Shown here piece after piece: positions 997-46,356 of a stretch of 64,000 nucleotides of DNA. This stretch comes from a virus, in IMG/VR virus record IMGVR_UViG_3300028030_000008, positions 1 through 64,000 of that record. One strand, 5' to 3'. Position 1 is the stretch's first letter; every line of letters begins with the position of its first letter. The notes beneath the pieces are model-generated. The model was not told the origin of the DNA. It worked only from the letters and a program-made list of their open reading frames with translations, and did not search any database. The position numbers and the translations under genes are program-made.

Positions 997-2208
997 CTAA
1001 GCTAATACTTGCAAAACCATCCGGTTAGCGCCTTCGTCCGCGTCGTCGCCATTCGTAAAGACAGGCCACGCGATAACGTTTACACCGACTTCGCGGTTGT
1101 AGTTGGGCTTGGGGTCTTTGAACGTCCAGGGCATCTTGCCGGGCTTCCAGCTTTCGTCAGCTTGCTCGATTGGCGCAGTACCCATTCGTAGCCCAATGTC
1201 GCCGGGCGGCAGAATGATAATCTTGTTACGCGGCAGGAAGTGGACGCGGGTTTTGGTAGCCGCAGAACCGAGACTTTCGGTTCTGTAAGTCCAGAACGCA
1301 TCGTAGGTCATAAAGTTCCAACCGAGTTTGGTCTTGATGTAGTCTTTAACATCTACATCAGTCACAAAATTTCGAGCGCCGGTTTGCTCTTTGTTTGAGC
1401 CAAGAATGTACTCTTTGATGTCGTCGTTTTCGGCCATCAAGTCAAAGGTGCTTTGGGGAACAATAACCGTGCCGCCCCAGAAGTCAATCCCGTACTTTTC
1501 TGAACCAATCTGGCGCATCAATCTAAACTGACCAAGGATGTCTGCGCTGGGGTCTGACCAATACTTTCTTTGGTCAGCGGTAGCGGCAGAGCCAGCGTAA
1601 TTCACCAAACTGGCAACGTCCTGATTCATGTCAGATGGCATTGGGAAAGTCCAAGTGCCAGAGTATTCAGCGTTCCAGTGAGCCGGGGGGTTGCTAATTG
1701 CAGAGCCAGCGTCGTTTACCGGAGGCCAAACCAGAGAGCCAAGCAAGGCGTGGACGGTGAAGTATTCCAAAGTAACATCAACGTCGTCTTCACACAAGCT
1801 CATTTTGCGTTGAATTTCTTTGGCGATGGCCCGTTTGTTGCGCTTGCTAACAGAAGTGTTGCCAGCATTGAAAACTGCAAGCTCTCCGGCTTCTCGTATC
1901 TTTTGAACAATGTTTGGTTTAATGTTTCGAGCAGATTTTACATCCTGCATCGAGAGCATCATCGTAGAGAACAGCGGGTCGCCAACAGGGATTGCTTGCC
2001 CATCAGGGGCGTACAGGCCAGCCAGGTTGCTTTCGGCCTGTGTTTTTTCTAAAAGAACTTCCCTTTCGTAAAAGTTCTCAAACGGCGCAAGCTTTGGTTG
2101 AAGATATTTCTGTCGCCAACCTCGCTTGGAGTCGTCAGGGCGCTCATTTAGCACCTTATACAAGAACTTCGGAGTCAAGGGATTTAACGGGAATAAATCA
2201 GTAGCCAT
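997..2208 (-). CDS. Major capsid protein (HK97 fold, lambda E-like)
   Basis: 403 aa; follows protease and decoration genes; strong RBS GGAGG; 'WSDPSADILG' and C-terminal 'FLPRNKIIILP...AWPV' typical of the cap E family. Confidence 0.85.
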   Translation of the reverse strand: MATDLFPLNPLTPKFLYKVLNERPDDSKRGWRQKYLQPKLAPFENFYEREVLLEKTQAESNLAGLYAPDGQAIPVGDPLFSTMMLSMQDVKSARNIKPNIVQKIREAGELAVFNAGNTSVSKRNKRAIAKEIQRKMSLCEDDVDVTLEYFTVHALLGSLVWPPVNDAGSAISNPPAHWNAEYSGTWTFPMPSDMNQDVASLVNYAGSAATADQRKYWSDPSADILGQFRLMRQIGSEKYGIDFWGGTVIVPQSTFDLMAENDDIKEYILGSNKEQTGARNFVTDVDVKDYIKTKLGWNFMTYDAFWTYRTESLGSAATKTRVHFLPRNKIIILPPGDIGLRMGTAPIEQADESWKPGKMPWTFKDPKPNYNREVGVNVIAWPVFTNGDDADEGANRMVLQVLA

Positions 2209-2219
2209 TTGTATCCTCC

Positions 2220-2618
2220 TTAAACCCAGTGAATGTCGGCCAGATGGCCCTTAATCGTAGACGAAACAGAACCCAAAGAGCCACCCAGGACATAGCAATT
2301 GCCTTCGATGATTTCGCCGTGATACACAGGCGTCATCCCGTAGTTTCCGTGCGTTACGTCAATAAAGTCATCAGCAAATACACCAACGGCGGTGTCAGAG
2401 CCAGTTCCATAAGCGGCAGAGGAGTTGTAGGGAACGAATTGACCAAGGTCGGTGTTCTTTGCAATAATCAAGCCGGGTCGTACTTCTTTGACACCGTTTG
2501 CGTCTTCGGGCCAGTAAGTTGCGGCAAACTCAAGCCCGATCAATTTCATGATGCCGGTTTGGTTGGCGATTACTTCCCGGATATTTTCACGCGCTTGCCA
2601 GTCTGTTTGATAAGGCAT
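2220..2618 (-). CDS. Head decoration protein
   Basis: 132 aa between scaffold and MCP; 'PGLIIAK...FVPYNSSAAYGTGSDTAVGVF' typical of gpD-like decoration proteins. Confidence 0.7.
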   Translation of the reverse strand: MPYQTDWQARENIREVIANQTGIMKLIGLEFAATYWPEDANGVKEVRPGLIIAKNTDLGQFVPYNSSAAYGTGSDTAVGVFADDFIDVTHGNYGMTPVYHGEIIEGNCYVLGGSLGSVSSTIKGHLADIHWV

Positions 2619-3178
2619 TATTTAACCTCCCAAAGAGCTTTGGCTGCTTCGTCGAGTTCATCGTCGCTCAGAGCGGTAGATTCTTCGCCGCCATGCTCTT
2701 TATCCATACGCTCGTCTTCGCCTGCGGTTTTGCCCTCAAAACCAATAGTGCGGTCAAGGTTCTGCGCTAGGCTAAGAAAAGCTCTAGTGTAATAACTGCG
2801 AACATCTTCAAGGCTGTAGTTGTCTTCGAGCTTGATTTCTCCATCTTCCCCTAACGGGGCTTCCAAGAGAACTTTTTCAATCGTCTCAAGGGTGACTGCT
2901 GGTAATATTTTACCGTCTTTCGGCAACTTAATATCAGCCATCAGTGCGCGGACATTGGCCTCGCGTTTAGCCTTTTTCAACGCAAGGTTGTCAGCTTCGA
3001 GAGCTTCAAGTCGAGCTTGTAAAGCCGCCGGAATTTCAGGCTCGGGTTCGGGAAGTTGAGCTTCCAGTGCCTTCACCTTATTTTCCAATTCATCAACCTT
3101 GCTTTCCAAACCCGCAATAGTTGACTCGGCCTCGTTGAGCTTTACATTATGCTCCTCAAGGGTAATGGTGTCAGTCAT
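2618..3178 (-). CDS. Nested in-frame scaffold protein (Mu gpZ-like internal start)
   Basis: GAGGAGGATGCT-ATG at 3178, in frame, at the start of the coiled-coil part. Confidence 0.65.
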   Translation of the reverse strand: MTDTITLEEHNVKLNEAESTIAGLESKVDELENKVKALEAQLPEPEPEIPAALQARLEALEADNLALKKAKREANVRALMADIKLPKDGKILPAVTLETIEKVLLEAPLGEDGEIKLEDNYSLEDVRSYYTRAFLSLAQNLDRTIGFEGKTAGEDERMDKEHGGEESTALSDDELDEAAKALWEVK

Positions 3179-3718
3179 AGCATCCTCCTCTGTAGGATTT
3201 TCAAACATAGAGTTTCCATTTTCATTAACTTCTAAAACCACCTCTTGACCGTAAGAAGCGGACATTAGTCTATTTGAAGTGTAATTGGGGTGATATTCAA
3301 TCGAGGCTGCGGCGTAACCCAATAGAGCATCTTTCGCCGCTTTTGATACAACAGGGCCGTGACCAACCAGTAGCTTGTCGCCACCCACTTCCTCTTGTTG
3401 TATCCATCCGTTCTTGCTCTTCTCGAACCATACTAGCATGCCAAGTTCTGGTCGGTGACGAATATCAAGACCAACTTGCCCATCGTAGACCTCATTCTCC
3501 CAGTTCTTGAGAAATTCTTCGTACTCATCATCAAAAAACTTGAGAGTTTCACCCGTTCGCCCGTAGCGGTACTTACCCTGCACCATAAACGGGACACGGG
3601 CATATTCAACCCCATCCTTATCGTAAAATTCAATGGGGTGTTTTCTTAGGCGAACATTGGGGCGGTTGGTTGCGGCTACCCCTAGAATTGTTTTACCATT
3701 TCCTGTTTTGTTTGCCAT
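2618..3718 (-). CDS. Prohead protease-scaffold fusion (Mu gpI-like)
   Basis: N-terminal protease-like motifs 'GLDIRH' and 'YAAASIEY'; C-terminal coiled coil; start moved to ATG 3718 because the TTG at 3790 lies upstream of a terminator. Confidence 0.75.
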   Translation of the reverse strand: MANKTGNGKTILGVAATNRPNVRLRKHPIEFYDKDGVEYARVPFMVQGKYRYGRTGETLKFFDDEYEEFLKNWENEVYDGQVGLDIRHRPELGMLVWFEKSKNGWIQQEEVGGDKLLVGHGPVVSKAAKDALLGYAAASIEYHPNYTSNRLMSASYGQEVVLEVNENGNSMFENPTEEDAMTDTITLEEHNVKLNEAESTIAGLESKVDELENKVKALEAQLPEPEPEIPAALQARLEALEADNLALKKAKREANVRALMADIKLPKDGKILPAVTLETIEKVLLEAPLGEDGEIKLEDNYSLEDVRSYYTRAFLSLAQNLDRTIGFEGKTAGEDERMDKEHGGEESTALSDDELDEAAKALWEVK

Positions 3719-3744
3719 ATCTTCAAGCCCTTGTTTTTGGACAT

Positions 3745-3774
3745 AAAAAAAAGCAGCGGTCTTCGGACCGCTGC
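3745..3774 (-). terminator. Intrinsic terminator
   Basis: GCAGCGGTC-CGAA-GACCGCTGC 9-bp stem followed by 8 T on the - strand. Confidence 0.85.
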
Positions 3775-3916
3775 GGGTAAGAGTTATCAATTAGTGTCGT
3801 GACTGCTCCCCCGGCTAAAGTATGGGGGCTTCTACAGTGGTCTAACCACTGAGACTCACCAGTCCGCGAGTCAGAATGTTGATTACCGCGCTAAGGTCGC
3901 GGTCAATCTTGAGTCC
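3775..3916 (-). ncRNA. Orphan IS200/IS605 right end / TnpB omegaRNA scaffold plus ~24-nt guide
   Basis: Translates as the TnpB C-terminal remnant (Y)GLKIDRDLSAVINILTRGL; right-end hairpin GAAGCCCCCATACTTTAGCCGGGGGAGCAG-TCAC ending at 3799; then GACACTAATTGATAACTCTTACCC. Confidence 0.75.
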
Positions 3917-3945
3917 ATAATATCATGAAATTATAAATATGTCAA
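3917..3945 (-). promoter_or_regulatory. Sigma70 promoter driving the omegaRNA / head leader
   Basis: TTGACA-17-TATTAT with a TG extension. Confidence 0.8.
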
Positions 3946-3982
3946 GTCAACCATCTTTGTTACAAAAAACCATAAGTGTTTT

Positions 3983-4011
3983 TTGCTAGAATATGACAAA
4001 CGTGCTATAAT
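3983..4011 (+). promoter_or_regulatory. Sigma70 promoter, leaderless mRNA
   Basis: TTGCTA-17-TATAAT (TG extended), 6 nt, then ATG 4018. Confidence 0.75.
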
Positions 4012-4017
4012 ACTACT

Positions 4018-4545
4018 ATGTCAAAGATAAACATACGCTATCCATCCACAGTTCAGCCCTCTCAGATTTGGGAGGGCGGAGGCAAGTCAATTGAAAAGCA
4101 CTACGTAATGGTGCTAAGAGTTGATGATGAGTACGCATATTGTTTCTCTTGTGGTAGCTTTCGAGAAACAAGAATTAAGCTATCCCGCTTTAATGCAAAG
4201 ACAACCGGATACTTCTTTGTTGCTAATCTTCTTGATTTAATCGAGAAGAGTAAGGGGTTTGTAACACCAATAGTTAATGAGAGAACATTCTTCCGCTTCC
4301 TTAGTGGCTTTCTATATCACAAGGATTACAGCGAAGGTAACGCGGCACAACTAACCCGTTGGTTGGATTATGAAATGACAAGACCAGAGAATGTTGATAG
4401 AAGTTACCCCAAGATACTGGATAGATACTTTACGGTGTACTTACCTTACGCAAAGAACTTGACAGCCAAAGCAAAGGATATTGACGAATTACTGTTTACA
4501 TTGAGCAGTAGAGGAGTATGGGATGAAAGAACTGGTTTGGTTTGA
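4018..4545 (+). CDS. Hypothetical protein
   Basis: 175-aa ORF with leaderless promoter. Confidence 0.7.
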   Translation: MSKINIRYPSTVQPSQIWEGGGKSIEKHYVMVLRVDDEYAYCFSCGSFRETRIKLSRFNAKTTGYFFVANLLDLIEKSKGFVTPIVNERTFFRFLSGFLYHKDYSEGNAAQLTRWLDYEMTRPENVDRSYPKILDRYFTVYLPYAKNLTAKAKDIDELLFTLSSRGVWDERTGLV

Positions 4546-5146
4546 TCTCGAAACATCTGGTCTTGACATGCAAAGGCATCAAATTATTCAAATTGCAATG
4601 ATTGCTACCGACCACAACCTTGAAATTTTAGAGACAGAAGCTTTCAAGTTAGAGTTTAGCGTCAAAATTGCAAGCCCTGATGCTCTAAAGGTTAATGGGT
4701 ATAGTGAAGAAAAATGGGAAGACGCAATTGGGCAACTTGAGGGAGTAGAGCGCATCAGGAGCTTCATGGAAAAACATGCAACATGGCAAAAACAAGGCAG
4801 TACGCATAAGTTCGCTGAACTTGCCGGGCACAATGTTGCTCTGTTTGATGCTCCGTTTTTAAGCGCATACTTTAAGCGAGCCAAAACATTTCTACCAGCA
4901 ACGCACTGGACTGGCGGACAAGTTGACACCCTGCAAATGGCAAAGTCGTACTTTTTTGCAATGGGTATTCAGGATAGCTTGAAACTCGGAAGCCTTTGCA
5001 AGCGGTTTGGGATTAAACTCGAAAACGCTCACGACGCGCTGGCTGACGTGATGGCGACGATTGAACTAGCGAAAGTGTTAAAAAATCAGATTGGATGTCA
5101 AGACAAGCTGGTGAGAGAGGCAATTAAACAAGGGGGTGTAATTTGA
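4523..5146 (+). CDS. DEDDh 3'-5' exonuclease (DnaQ-like)
   Basis: FDLETSGL, GHNVALFD, HDALADV motifs. Confidence 0.9.
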   Translation: MKELVWFDLETSGLDMQRHQIIQIAMIATDHNLEILETEAFKLEFSVKIASPDALKVNGYSEEKWEDAIGQLEGVERIRSFMEKHATWQKQGSTHKFAELAGHNVALFDAPFLSAYFKRAKTFLPATHWTGGQVDTLQMAKSYFFAMGIQDSLKLGSLCKRFGIKLENAHDALADVMATIELAKVLKNQIGCQDKLVREAIKQGGVI

Positions 5147-5463: not shown

Positions 5464-5801
5464 AAATCAAAGGCGTAGCTGCAACAACACTTCCGTTTAA
5501 TATTCACAGTGGACTATTTCAATTTTCCATAGAACAGTTGCAAATGTTGGCAAGAACCGCAGTTGGAGTCTCTGTAACAAGAGACTTTTTACCCGGAAGA
5601 TTGGGTGTGGTAAGCAAGGCATTTGTGGAAGATGGCAACTTGATTATCGAGGCTGATTTGGATAATGCTGAGTTGTTAGATGGGTGGCACATCGTTCCAT
5701 CCTACACCTCTCATGATTTTGCCACATTAGAAATGTCATTAACGCAAAGCCCCGCAGATAAGAGCTTGCCACAGGTAGAAAGATTGAACTTGGAGGAATG
5801 A
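5460..5801 (+). CDS. Small protein resembling a degenerate HK97/herpes-type prohead protease fold
   Basis: 'IKGVAAT...LGVVSKAFVEDGNLIIEA...LEMSLTQSPAD' pattern; catalytic His position appears to be Phe. Confidence 0.45.
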   Translation: MKIKGVAATTLPFNIHSGLFQFSIEQLQMLARTAVGVSVTRDFLPGRLGVVSKAFVEDGNLIIEADLDNAELLDGWHIVPSYTSHDFATLEMSLTQSPADKSLPQVERLNLEE

Positions 5802-5995
5802 TGACTAAGCAGAGACACACTAGAAGCTGCAAAACAGACCCTATATTGTTTATCGAGAAATACTGTACTATTGACGGTAAGCCAATTGTACTGTCTGAAT
5901 TACAAAAAACCTTCTTGAAACAAGAAATCATAATTCCATCATCTGGCGACGCAGAGTTTAAATTGTTATCCTTGGAACAAAAGAGCGAGGCATAA
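5798..5995 (+). CDS. Small protein resembling the TerL N-terminal subdomain
   Basis: CKTDPILFIEKYC...LQ versus the phage's own TerL CRKDPRYFIENYC...FQ. Confidence 0.6.
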   Translation: MMTKQRHTRSCKTDPILFIEKYCTIDGKPIVLSELQKTFLKQEIIIPSSGDAEFKLLSLEQKSEA

Positions 5996-6303
5996 TGACA
6001 TTTATTGCGCCAATTTTAAAACGAACGGTTATCACCGGCGACTGCATCGTTAAGGACGGTAGAGGAAAGGGTTTTAGGTGTACACACCCAGATGTAACAC
6101 ACTTGGGCATTGAAAGAAAACTTTCTCTTGATAAAGAAAGACCATATATAGCTATAGAACGCAGTCAGTGCAAGTTTTGCGATGCGTATATTGAAGAATT
6201 TTGGCTAACCGCGTATCCAGATTACGAAAGCGGAGTAGCCGCAATGGGTGTTGCAAATTCGGTAATTGCTGGTGTTGATAAACTCGATAAAAGGGAGGGA
6301 TAA
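5995..6303 (+). CDS. Hypothetical protein (Cys/His, possible Zn-binding)
   Basis: CTH...CKFC; RBS GAGG. Confidence 0.6.
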   Translation: MTFIAPILKRTVITGDCIVKDGRGKGFRCTHPDVTHLGIERKLSLDKERPYIAIERSQCKFCDAYIEEFWLTAYPDYESGVAAMGVANSVIAGVDKLDKREG

Positions 6304-6726
6304 GTGTGTCATCATAAATGGAAAGAGATTTTAGCGGAAGACTACATTGGTGGTCTGATTGGGTTAAAATGCGAGAAATGCGGAAAATTTCTCTCAGAAA
6401 CAGAACATGGGTTATCTAAACATGTAAACGAGCTGGAAGATGCAGTTGCGGATGCCGGAGTTGTGTTTCGCAAGATGCCAGTAGAGGATGGATTTGCTGT
6501 TGTTGTTCGCGGTGATTGGCACAAAAAACTCTCAAAAGTGCCCGGAAGTAAAACACAGTTTATGCCGTACATTGATAGAGTTATGTTGACCATCGGCGAC
6601 ACAAAGGATAGCGGAGCAATTGTCATTCCAGTAGTCAAGGATACGGAGTTTGAAGTTGTAGAGCTTGATGGGCACAACGAGAATGAATGGGATATTGAAA
6701 TCATATTTAACAAAAAGGAGAAATAA
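6304..6726 (+). CDS. Hypothetical protein with N-terminal Zn ribbon
   Basis: CHHKW...CEKCG; RBS GGAGG. Confidence 0.65.
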   Translation: MCHHKWKEILAEDYIGGLIGLKCEKCGKFLSETEHGLSKHVNELEDAVADAGVVFRKMPVEDGFAVVVRGDWHKKLSKVPGSKTQFMPYIDRVMLTIGDTKDSGAIVIPVVKDTEFEVVELDGHNENEWDIEIIFNKKEK

Positions 6727-7140
6727 ATGTATCAAAAGCTTACAATCATAGGAAACTTGGGCAGAGATCCGGTAATGAAATTTATGCCAAACGGCGACGC
6801 TGTAACAACCTTTAGTGTAGCTACGAGTAATAAGTACACAACAAAGGATGGTAGCAAGGTCGAGGAAACAACTTGGTTTAGAGTTACGGCTTGGCGACGA
6901 CTTGCAGAGATATGCAACCAGTATTTATCGAAAGGTTCAAAGGTGTTTATTGAGGGTAGACTGACGCCGGACAAGGAAACCGGCAGCCCTAGAGTTTACG
7001 AGGCCAACGATGGAACGCACAGAGCGTCTTTTGAGGTCTTGGCTCTTGAGGTTAAATTTCTAAGTAGTAAGGGTGATGTTGCCGCGAAACCACAGCAAGC
7101 ACAAACCCAAGAAGCGCCAGAGGAACAGATACCGTTTTAG
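6727..7140 (+). CDS. ssb: Single-stranded DNA-binding protein
   Basis: IIGNLGRDP, TTWFRVTAW, GSKVFIEGRL, C-terminal IPF. Confidence 0.97.
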   Translation: MYQKLTIIGNLGRDPVMKFMPNGDAVTTFSVATSNKYTTKDGSKVEETTWFRVTAWRRLAEICNQYLSKGSKVFIEGRLTPDKETGSPRVYEANDGTHRASFEVLALEVKFLSSKGDVAAKPQQAQTQEAPEEQIPF

Positions 7141-46284: not shown

Positions 46285-46356
46285 TGCGGAATAGCTTAAC
46301 GGTAGAGCGCCAGAATCATAATCTGGATGTTGCAGGTTCAAATCCCGCTTCCGCAA
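46285..46356 (+). tRNA. tRNA with CAT anticodon (Met/fMet or Ile2)
   Basis: TGCGGAA/TTCCGCA acceptor, GCTT/GAGC D-stem, CCAGA-ATCATAA-TCTGG, GG-TTCAAAT-CC; no encoded CCA. Confidence 0.85.

Follow-up and report, generated by a model that had tools for sequence, protein, structure and literature searches.

The stretch considered here comprises positions 3745-3945 on the minus strand of a phage genome, the IMG/VR virus record IMGVR_UViG_3300028030_000008, and precedes the head operon of this phage. It contains a promoter, a sequence corresponding to the scaffold of an omegaRNA (the guide RNA of a TnpB protein), 24 nt in guide position and an intrinsic terminator. The record is 85,699 bp long with an estimated completeness of 90% and probably derives from a hydrothermal-vent metagenome; its first 64 kb are the window that was analysed. 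We found that the stretch is made up of two things of different origin, a native regulatory module and a 118-nt fragment of an IS608-like transposon situated within it. In our judgement this fragment is probably a transcribed, polymorphic, 5'-truncated transposon relic that consists of the omegaRNA part only and is tolerated in the late leader.

The different origin of the two parts can be read from contigs of four DNA-type runs, belonging to two studies other than the probable source, which were aligned to positions 2600-4800. In two of these contigs (one of 364 nt from run X3 and one of 277 nt from run X5) position 3797 is joined to position 3916 and 118 nt are skipped. The position of the joint is uncertain by one nucleotide, a G being present on both sides. 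The shorter side of the joint measures 142 nt in X3 and 32 nt in X5, and these 32 nt of X5 (3766-3797) show no differences from the window. Contigs from runs X2 and X4 contain both junctions of the insert-bearing form, and both alleles were found in each of the two studies. The 118-nt scaffold is a presence/absence polymorphism. The insert-free allele has the form TTGACA-17-TATTAT-GACACTAATTGATAACTCTTACCC-terminator, and the insert-free contigs keep all DNA from 3916 upward. The preliminary description of this DNA had assigned a TAT codon, replacing a Cys codon by a Tyr codon, to the retained transposon segment. This assignment had to be given up, as the TATTAT sequence is native and is kept in the insert-free contigs.

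The native module starts with a strong promoter of the sigma-70 type on the minus strand, consisting of the -35 hexamer TTGACA (3945-3940) and an extended -10 element TG-A-TATTAT (3925-3917, with the TG at 3925-3924 and TATTAT at 3922-3917), which are separated by a spacer of 17 nt. This resident head-operon promoter (3945-3917) agrees with the consensus at 11 of 12 positions and is the best minus-strand promoter match within 3000-5000; a second TTGACT, at 3950-3945, overlaps the -35 hexamer. In the insert-bearing form the native 24-nt leader GACACTAATTGATAACTCTTACCC (3798-3775) occupies the guide position of the omegaRNA and is the same as the target in the insert-free allele. The leader is followed by the native intrinsic terminator (3774-3745), with a stem of 9 pairs (3774-3753, 7 of them G-C), a 4-nt loop CGAA and a T8 run at 3752-3745, and the ATG of the first head gene (3718-3716) is reached 26 nt past the T run. 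The terminator is retained in the insert-free contigs. Promoter, 24-nt segment, terminator and distance to the head gene had all been noted in the preliminary description, and their coordinates proved right on checking. Genome-wide only one more promoter-plus-terminator unit was found, a weak one near 54.9 kb. Two variations of the terminator were observed among the contigs. In X2 and X3 a single base of the T run (3745-3752) is changed, and the loop is inverted in the insert-free contig X5 (CGAA versus TTCG, plus strand), which could be a real flipping of the hairpin loop or an effect of the assembly.

The same arrangement exists in a related phage contig. When metagenome contigs were searched with the protein of head gene 1, one relative was obtained (L004, 51% identical), whose synteny matches that of the phage, including the homologous divergent gene. 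Its layout comprises TTGACT-17-TATATT with a TG at 5740-5768, a 25-nt leader, a terminator of 10 pairs followed by T7 (5794-5817) and the head gene (5875-7035). The TTGACT at 5740-5745 is homologous to the -35 hexamer of the phage, TG-A-TATATT is the equivalent of its extended -10 element, and the 3' part of the 25-nt leader resembles the 24-nt leader. No transposon sequence was found in this promoter-leader-terminator unit of L004. Since the layout is present without the insert in the insert-free contigs as well as in L004, we conclude that promoter, "guide" and terminator together form a leader that belongs to the phage itself.

The insert itself (3916-3799, minus strand, 118 nt) is the 5'-truncated right end of an IS608-like (IS200/IS605) tnpB element and is equivalent to an omegaRNA scaffold. 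Its first part (3916-3842) is a non-coding tnpB remnant with the last 24 codons and the stop codon, GLKIDRDLSAVINILTRGLVSLSG*. The insert starts at a Gly codon (3916), i.e. between the second zinc-finger Cys codon and the Gly codon of tnpB; the open frame YYGLKIDRDLSAVINILTRGLVSLSG*, which spans 3922-3842, has a stop codon just before it. In a BLAST search the insert was 76% identical over its positions 1-118 to G001:C309:1-115 (L045, a Caldilineales metagenome-assembled genome; E 5.7e-15). The matching sequence is the 3' end of an intact gene for a 379-aa TnpB (NF040570, 249 bits) together with the right end. This TnpB ends with …CPDCGLKLDRDLNASLNILARGLASLRL; the phage remnant aligns with its CGLKLDRDLNASLNILARGLASLRL, and the stop codons are at the same position. 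When 7.3 Gb of plasmids were searched by tblastn with the 26-aa peptide, 23 records matched, mostly at annotated TnpB C-termini. Pfam and NCBIfam gave no match for the 26-aa peptide, which is of a length that family hidden Markov models cannot score. The similarity greatly exceeds what chance would produce, and the L045 match and the TnpB C-termini bear out the earlier identification of this part as a tnpB 3' end with an IS605 right end reaching to the TCAC at 3799.

The right end of an IS608-like element of Helicobacter pylori (L005, …GAATCCCCTAGCTTTAGCTATGGGGAGTATGTCAA) aligns base for base with GAAGCCCCCATACTTTAGCCGGGGGAGCAGTCAC of the phage. With a pattern made from these two right ends, 120 genomic right ends from many phyla were collected (L007-L126), among which L045 is the closest to the phage sequence. 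In this collection the base on the 5' side of the hairpin foot changes together with the last base of the cleavage site, with GAAT/TCAA in 75 cases, GAAG/TCAC in 16 and GAAA/TCAT in 3; the phage insert, with GAAG/TCAC, is in line with this code. The covariation GAAN/TCAN is the DNA-guide code of IS608 and extends across many phyla. Among the relatives the base following GTCAC varies, so that the end of the element can be placed at 3799. The 24-nt flank follows directly, and the scaffold with its flank in guide position is as originally described. Other searches were less productive: neither the region nor the scaffold gave a useful blastn match in phages or plasmids, exact or degenerate patterns had no match in viral contigs, and the first pattern that was tried on genome contigs had none there. 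No scaffold relative closer than L045 was found in 819 sampled genomes (401 Campylobacterota, 401 Chloroflexota and 17 of the G002 class).

The insert sits directly 3' of TTAT, the last four bases of the -10 hexamer TATTAT. In L045 a TTAT is situated 17 nt before the left-end hairpin, and the relatives of the TCAA type show the same geometry with TTAC. From this single relative, L045, we infer that TTAT is the target, or target-adjacent motif (TAM), of the family to which the insert belongs. TTAT is a known TAM of a TnpB, that of ISDge10 (PMC13507860). Within 5740-5817 of L004, the -10 region TATATTAC contains TTAC, the classic IS608 target, where the phage has TTAT, and AT-rich -10 boxes may be natural landing sites of the IS608-like family. 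At the left end of a G002 element (L028:4840-4880) we observed a tandem duplication of about 14 nt, CAAACCCTCCGTA, which leads to two candidate left borders, TTAC and ATAC.

The insert contains no CCCC…GGGG left-end hairpin, no tnpA and only 24 tnpB codons. With TTAT at the left border and a canonical cleavage site at the right border, both borders nevertheless look transposase-made. One idea for the flush truncation would be a partial excision in which TnpA used an internal TTAT-like site along with the true left site, the flank being rejoined to the internal one. The corresponding internal site at the zinc-finger Cys codon reads xTGY in the relatives and TTGT in L099. Microhomology between the 5' end of the insert and the right flank was also considered as the cause of the truncation and was rejected, since 2660 of 20000 shuffles scored equally well.

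As an RNA, the insert has the predicted architecture of an omegaRNA scaffold. Within the tnpB remnant lies hairpin H1 (CCGCG/CGCGG, 3902-3886). It is followed by helix H2 (GACTC/GAGTC, 3872-3853), whose loop GACTG (3864-3860) is the 5' strand of a pseudoknot, and by helix H3 (CAGTGGT-TAG-ACCACTG, 3851-3835). Next comes the right-end hairpin of TnpA type (3828-3808), preceded by GAAG, and then a segment (3805-3799) that contains the 3' strand of the pseudoknot, CAGTC (3805-3801), and the cleavage motif TCAC (3802-3799). The pseudoknot links the loop of H2 by five base pairs to the bases that immediately precede the guide. Pairing in the insert is perfect for H2, H3 and the pseudoknot, all of which covary among the relatives. 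For H2 the relatives have GGCTC/GAGCC, GAGAC/GTCTC and GAGAT/ATCTC, and at the place of H3 they have CCGG/CCGG, GGGG/CCCC and GGGA/TCCC. Where the insert has GACTG/CAGTC in the pseudoknot, GGCTG/CAGTC, GGCTA/TAGTC, GGCAA/TTGTC, GACGG/TCGTC and GGCTT/AAGTC are found. The covariation of the helices was judged by hand and with a script on few sequences, MAFFT having misplaced the 3' strand of H2 in an alignment of three close relatives. A folding z-score of -4.8 was obtained for the RNA between the predicted start and the T run, and in the predicted fold the 24-nt leader is single-stranded and the terminator is intact.

In Rfam searches at gathering thresholds only a tRNA (46285-46356) was detected and no omegaRNA family matched. 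A permissive search of 3600-4100 gave nothing but sub-threshold matches on the plus strand. One of these was HEARO, the omegaRNA of IscB, at 3799-4036 (15.9 bits versus a gathering threshold of 83). The 5' hairpin of this match is the reverse complement of the right-end hairpin, and we attribute the match to the end hairpin shared within IS200/IS605, which would not make it an IscB RNA.

The right-end hairpin is the part of the insert that has suffered. Of its two stems the outer one, CCCCC/GGGGG, survives; the inner one is down to one pair and the bulged T is gone, with no compensation. The hairpin bound by TnpA in this family is built as CCCC, inner stem, TTTA, inner stem, bulged T and GGGG. 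When intact it has 3-4 pairs in its inner stem and a T outside the helix, and the insert falls short of this. Only 6 of the 120 relatives have as few inner pairs as the insert, which places it in the bottom 5%, while at least two consecutive inner pairs are present in 114 of the 120. Because the hairpin recognised by the transposase is degraded, the insert is probably immobile.

The partner that such a scaffold would require was not found in the phage. The intact resident tnpB gene (63291-64520, minus strand) codes for a 409-aa TnpB (NF040570, 179 bits) with a long C-terminal tail. The locus continues to about 64634 in the genome, has the right end …GTAGTTGAC and has no tnpA beside it. With the L045 TnpB the resident protein shares no more than 25% identity; the two are of different clades, and their right ends are unrelated. 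On account of this identity and the different right end we excluded it as the partner of the insert, in agreement with the preliminary description, which had not taken it as cognate. That description had also proposed to look in the rest of the genome for a tnpB or tldR of the TCAC type. Neither a tldR nor a second tnpB-like gene is present in the 85.7-kb record, which is about 90% complete. With up to 3-4 mismatches allowed, the guide matches the 85.7-kb genome nowhere else, even at 16 nt with 3 mismatches. Its sole evident target is the insert-free allele, TTAT+GACACTAATTGATAAC.

These results bear on the view, put forward in the preliminary description, that the stretch is a stand-alone, domesticated gene for a trans-acting guide RNA with which a TnpB or TldR would regulate or attack another locus. 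The succession of promoter, scaffold, guide and terminator does look like a gene, and TldR systems that are encoded by phages and have fixed guides are known (bioRxiv 10.1101/2023.11.30.569447). However, promoter, "guide" and terminator pre-exist without the scaffold in X3, X5 and L004 and are older than the insert. The guide is native flank without another match in the genome, and no tldR or compatible tnpB is adjacent or elsewhere in the record. Moreover, the insert is polymorphic and not fixed, and the insert-free alleles contradict domestication. We therefore consider a domesticated guide RNA extremely unlikely.

According to the reading that we prefer, a transposon relic tolerated in the late leader, the resident promoter would start transcription about 7 nt into the insert, and the resident terminator would end most transcripts about 165 nt after the start. 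The resulting leader RNA would consist of the scaffold, 24 nt of native flank and the terminator hairpin. It would thus have the form of an omegaRNA aimed at the vacant site, and it would owe this form to the landing place of the insert between a resident promoter and a resident terminator. Without a compatible TnpB this RNA would do nothing. For the head genes to be expressed, transcription would have to pass the terminator by read-through or antitermination, and the same would hold for the insert-free phage. In the conserved promoter-terminator unit we see a candidate antitermination switch; PHROGs and Pfam searches, confined to the neighbouring open reading frames, revealed no antiterminator.

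Several observations speak against this reading. As the record is only about 90% complete, a cognate gene might be encoded in the portion that it lacks, or the TnpB might come from the host. H2, H3 and the fully Watson-Crick 5-bp pseudoknot are intact, and at about 112-118 nt the scaffold seems long enough; given this architecture, the insert RNA could be a working guide RNA. Stand-alone omegaRNAs that function in trans together with a compatible effector are documented (PMC10691335, PMC10055086). A random deletion of a full-length element would not be expected to leave a truncation that is flush on the 5' side. Finally, the antitermination view draws on the layout and on its conservation in one relative, L004. 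With regard to the helices it should be considered that the insertion may be recent; in this case they would show that the parent element had a working omegaRNA and not that the phage has selected for one.

If the RNA does work, the insert could be a selfish homing element consisting of an omegaRNA only. The RNA made from the phage promoter would load a TTAT-type TnpB of an insertion sequence of the host and would cut insert-free siblings at TTAT+GACACTAATTGATAAC, within the promoter and leader of their head operon. Recombinational repair from an insert-bearing genome would then copy the insert in, in the manner of a gene drive, or the rival phage would be destroyed. Such homing would fit with a guide that is identical to the vacant allele, with the coexistence of this allele and the insert-bearing one in the same studies and with the TTAT TAM directly 5' of the target. 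The scaffold helices and the pseudoknot are intact, and a strong promoter and a clean terminator would yield a defined RNA. Homing of TnpB at vacated sites is established, as is the action in trans of omegaRNAs that stand alone or belong to palindrome-associated transposable elements, PATEs (PMC10055086, PMC10691335). On the other hand, a compatible TnpB is absent from the phage record and, apart from L045, the sampled Campylobacterota, Chloroflexota and G002-class genomes yielded nothing closely related to the scaffold. In addition, the terminal hairpin has decayed. Furthermore, every IS605 insertion carries a guide against its own vacant site, and the match is expected without selection. We consider homing unlikely. 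Unlikely, too, appears to us the generalisation that right-end-only omegaRNA inserts of about 100-135 nt, flush with the target, produced by partial excision by TnpA at an internal TTAT-like site and located behind resident phage promoters, form a recurrent class, of which the present one uses the late promoter to arm a TTAT-type TnpB of the host against insert-free siblings. If this were true, the insert would be a protein-less homing or competition element between co-infecting phages.

A further alternative is that the insert acts in cis and alters the expression of the head operon. The sequence that is initially transcribed would have been moved 118 nt from the promoter and the terminated RNA lengthened from about 45 to about 165 nt, by which pausing, the loading of an antiterminator, the efficiency of the terminator or the stability of the RNA could change. 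The position of the insert between the -10 element and the conserved leader with its terminator is in favour of such an effect, as are the persistence of both alleles in two studies and the predicted fold, in which the terminator hairpin and the 24-nt leader are clear of the scaffold. Yet the scaffold folds alone and does not compete with the terminator, its transposon origin accounts for the entire insert sequence, and nothing supports a difference in expression between the alleles. We regard an effect in cis as very unlikely. The second option of the preliminary description, an attenuator leader of the capsid operon, came closer to the truth than the guide-RNA gene, but the leader function belongs to the native parts and not to the insert.

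The module precedes a head operon that is encoded on the minus strand and is very isolated in the sequence databases (997-3718). Head gene 1 (2618-3718) codes for a protein of 366 aa of unknown function and is followed by a head-decoration-D-like gene (2220-2618) and by the gene for the major capsid protein E (997-2208). For the major capsid protein a tblastn search of 50,697 phage records gave no match. The head gene 1 protein has only 6 homologues among 5.8 billion proteins, and neither this protein nor its alignment had a match in viral contigs. The homologues start with MAKK/MANK…GNGKTI; one of them, P0002, is 77% identical and is encoded on a 91-kb contig. In the opposite direction, a promoter-like site TTGCTA-17-TATAAT with a TG, i.e. 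with an extended -10 element (3983-4011, plus strand), would serve the early/replication genes from 4018 on and is separated from the first ATG of this arm by only about 7 nt. The first gene of the early arm (4018-4545, plus strand) codes for a 175-aa protein without a family match, a 31%-identical homologue of which is encoded at the same position in L004. Genes for an exonuclease and an SSB are situated downstream.

Taken as a transposon relic in a late leader, the stretch is a cautionary and well-resolved case, as a layout that looks like a designed guide-RNA gene came about when a single transposon fragment landed in the TTAT of a -10 box that is followed by a leader and a terminator. For an uncharacterised TTAT-type clade of TnpB it also provides a natural, minimal expression cassette, in which the 118-nt scaffold and the guide lie between a promoter and a terminator. 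We see its main value in the natural pair of an insert-bearing and an insert-free allele and in the conserved promoter-terminator unit. With the allele pair one can ask whether gene-less phage omegaRNAs recruit the TnpB of a host to bias inheritance between phage genomes, and the promoter-terminator unit is a candidate antitermination switch in an otherwise unannotated lineage of vent phages.

Among the known systems, PATEs and stand-alone omegaRNAs (Altae-Tran 2021 via PMC10691335; Meers 2023, PMC10055086) resemble the insert in that they are gene-less scaffolds composed of a tnpB 3' end and a right end, use the flank as guide and need TnpB in trans. PATEs keep both ends and can be mobilised, whereas the insert has no left end and its right-end hairpin is degraded. 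Unlike a PATE or a stand-alone omegaRNA, it has no compatible effector in the record and borrows the late promoter and the terminator of the phage. Gene-less omegaRNAs as such are already known (PMC10055086, PMC10691335); what distinguishes the insert is the combination of a right end only, a degraded hairpin, the lack of a compatible effector in the record and phage signals for transcription. The guide RNAs of prophage TldR systems are likewise phage-borne, derived from TnpB and provided with fixed guides. They are encoded beside tldR and are directed at one particular promoter of the host, whereas the insert has neither such a gene nor a separate target in the genome.

With the omegaRNA (right-end element RNA, reRNA) of ISDra2 and ISDge10 the insert shares the logic of a scaffold of about 110-130 nt reaching to the right end, a pseudoknot adjacent to the guide and a TAM on the 5' side. 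The TAM of ISDge10 is TTAT (PMC13507860), as at the insert, the likeness considered here being one of architecture. The insert also corresponds to the IS608 type, represented by IS608/ISHp608 (L005) and the tnpB-only elements L045, L099 and L028. The insert has the same subterminal hairpin CCCC…CTTTAGC…GGGG. It has the same TCAx cleavage site 9-10 nt past the hairpin, paired to the base on the 5' side of the hairpin foot (GAAG/TCAC), and the same location directly 3' of TTAY. In both, a tnpB C-terminus of the form …CG(L)K(I/L)DRD(L)(N/S)A…NIL…RGL overlaps the scaffold. Compared with these elements the insert keeps the final 118 nt only, has lost the inner stem and the bulged T and is 76% identical to the nearest relative found.

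For the native module the system to be compared is the PR'-tR' region of phage lambda with its 6S RNA, in which a late promoter is followed by a promoter-proximal terminator and transcription is released by Q antitermination. No Q-like gene was identified in the neighbouring open reading frames that were searched, nor was a Q-binding or pause element identified, and the native terminated RNA would be much shorter, about 45-50 nt. The module of the phage is nevertheless built alike: a strong promoter that looks constitutive, with an intrinsic terminator that looks efficient within tens of bases, is placed before the head genes, and this arrangement is conserved in a relative.

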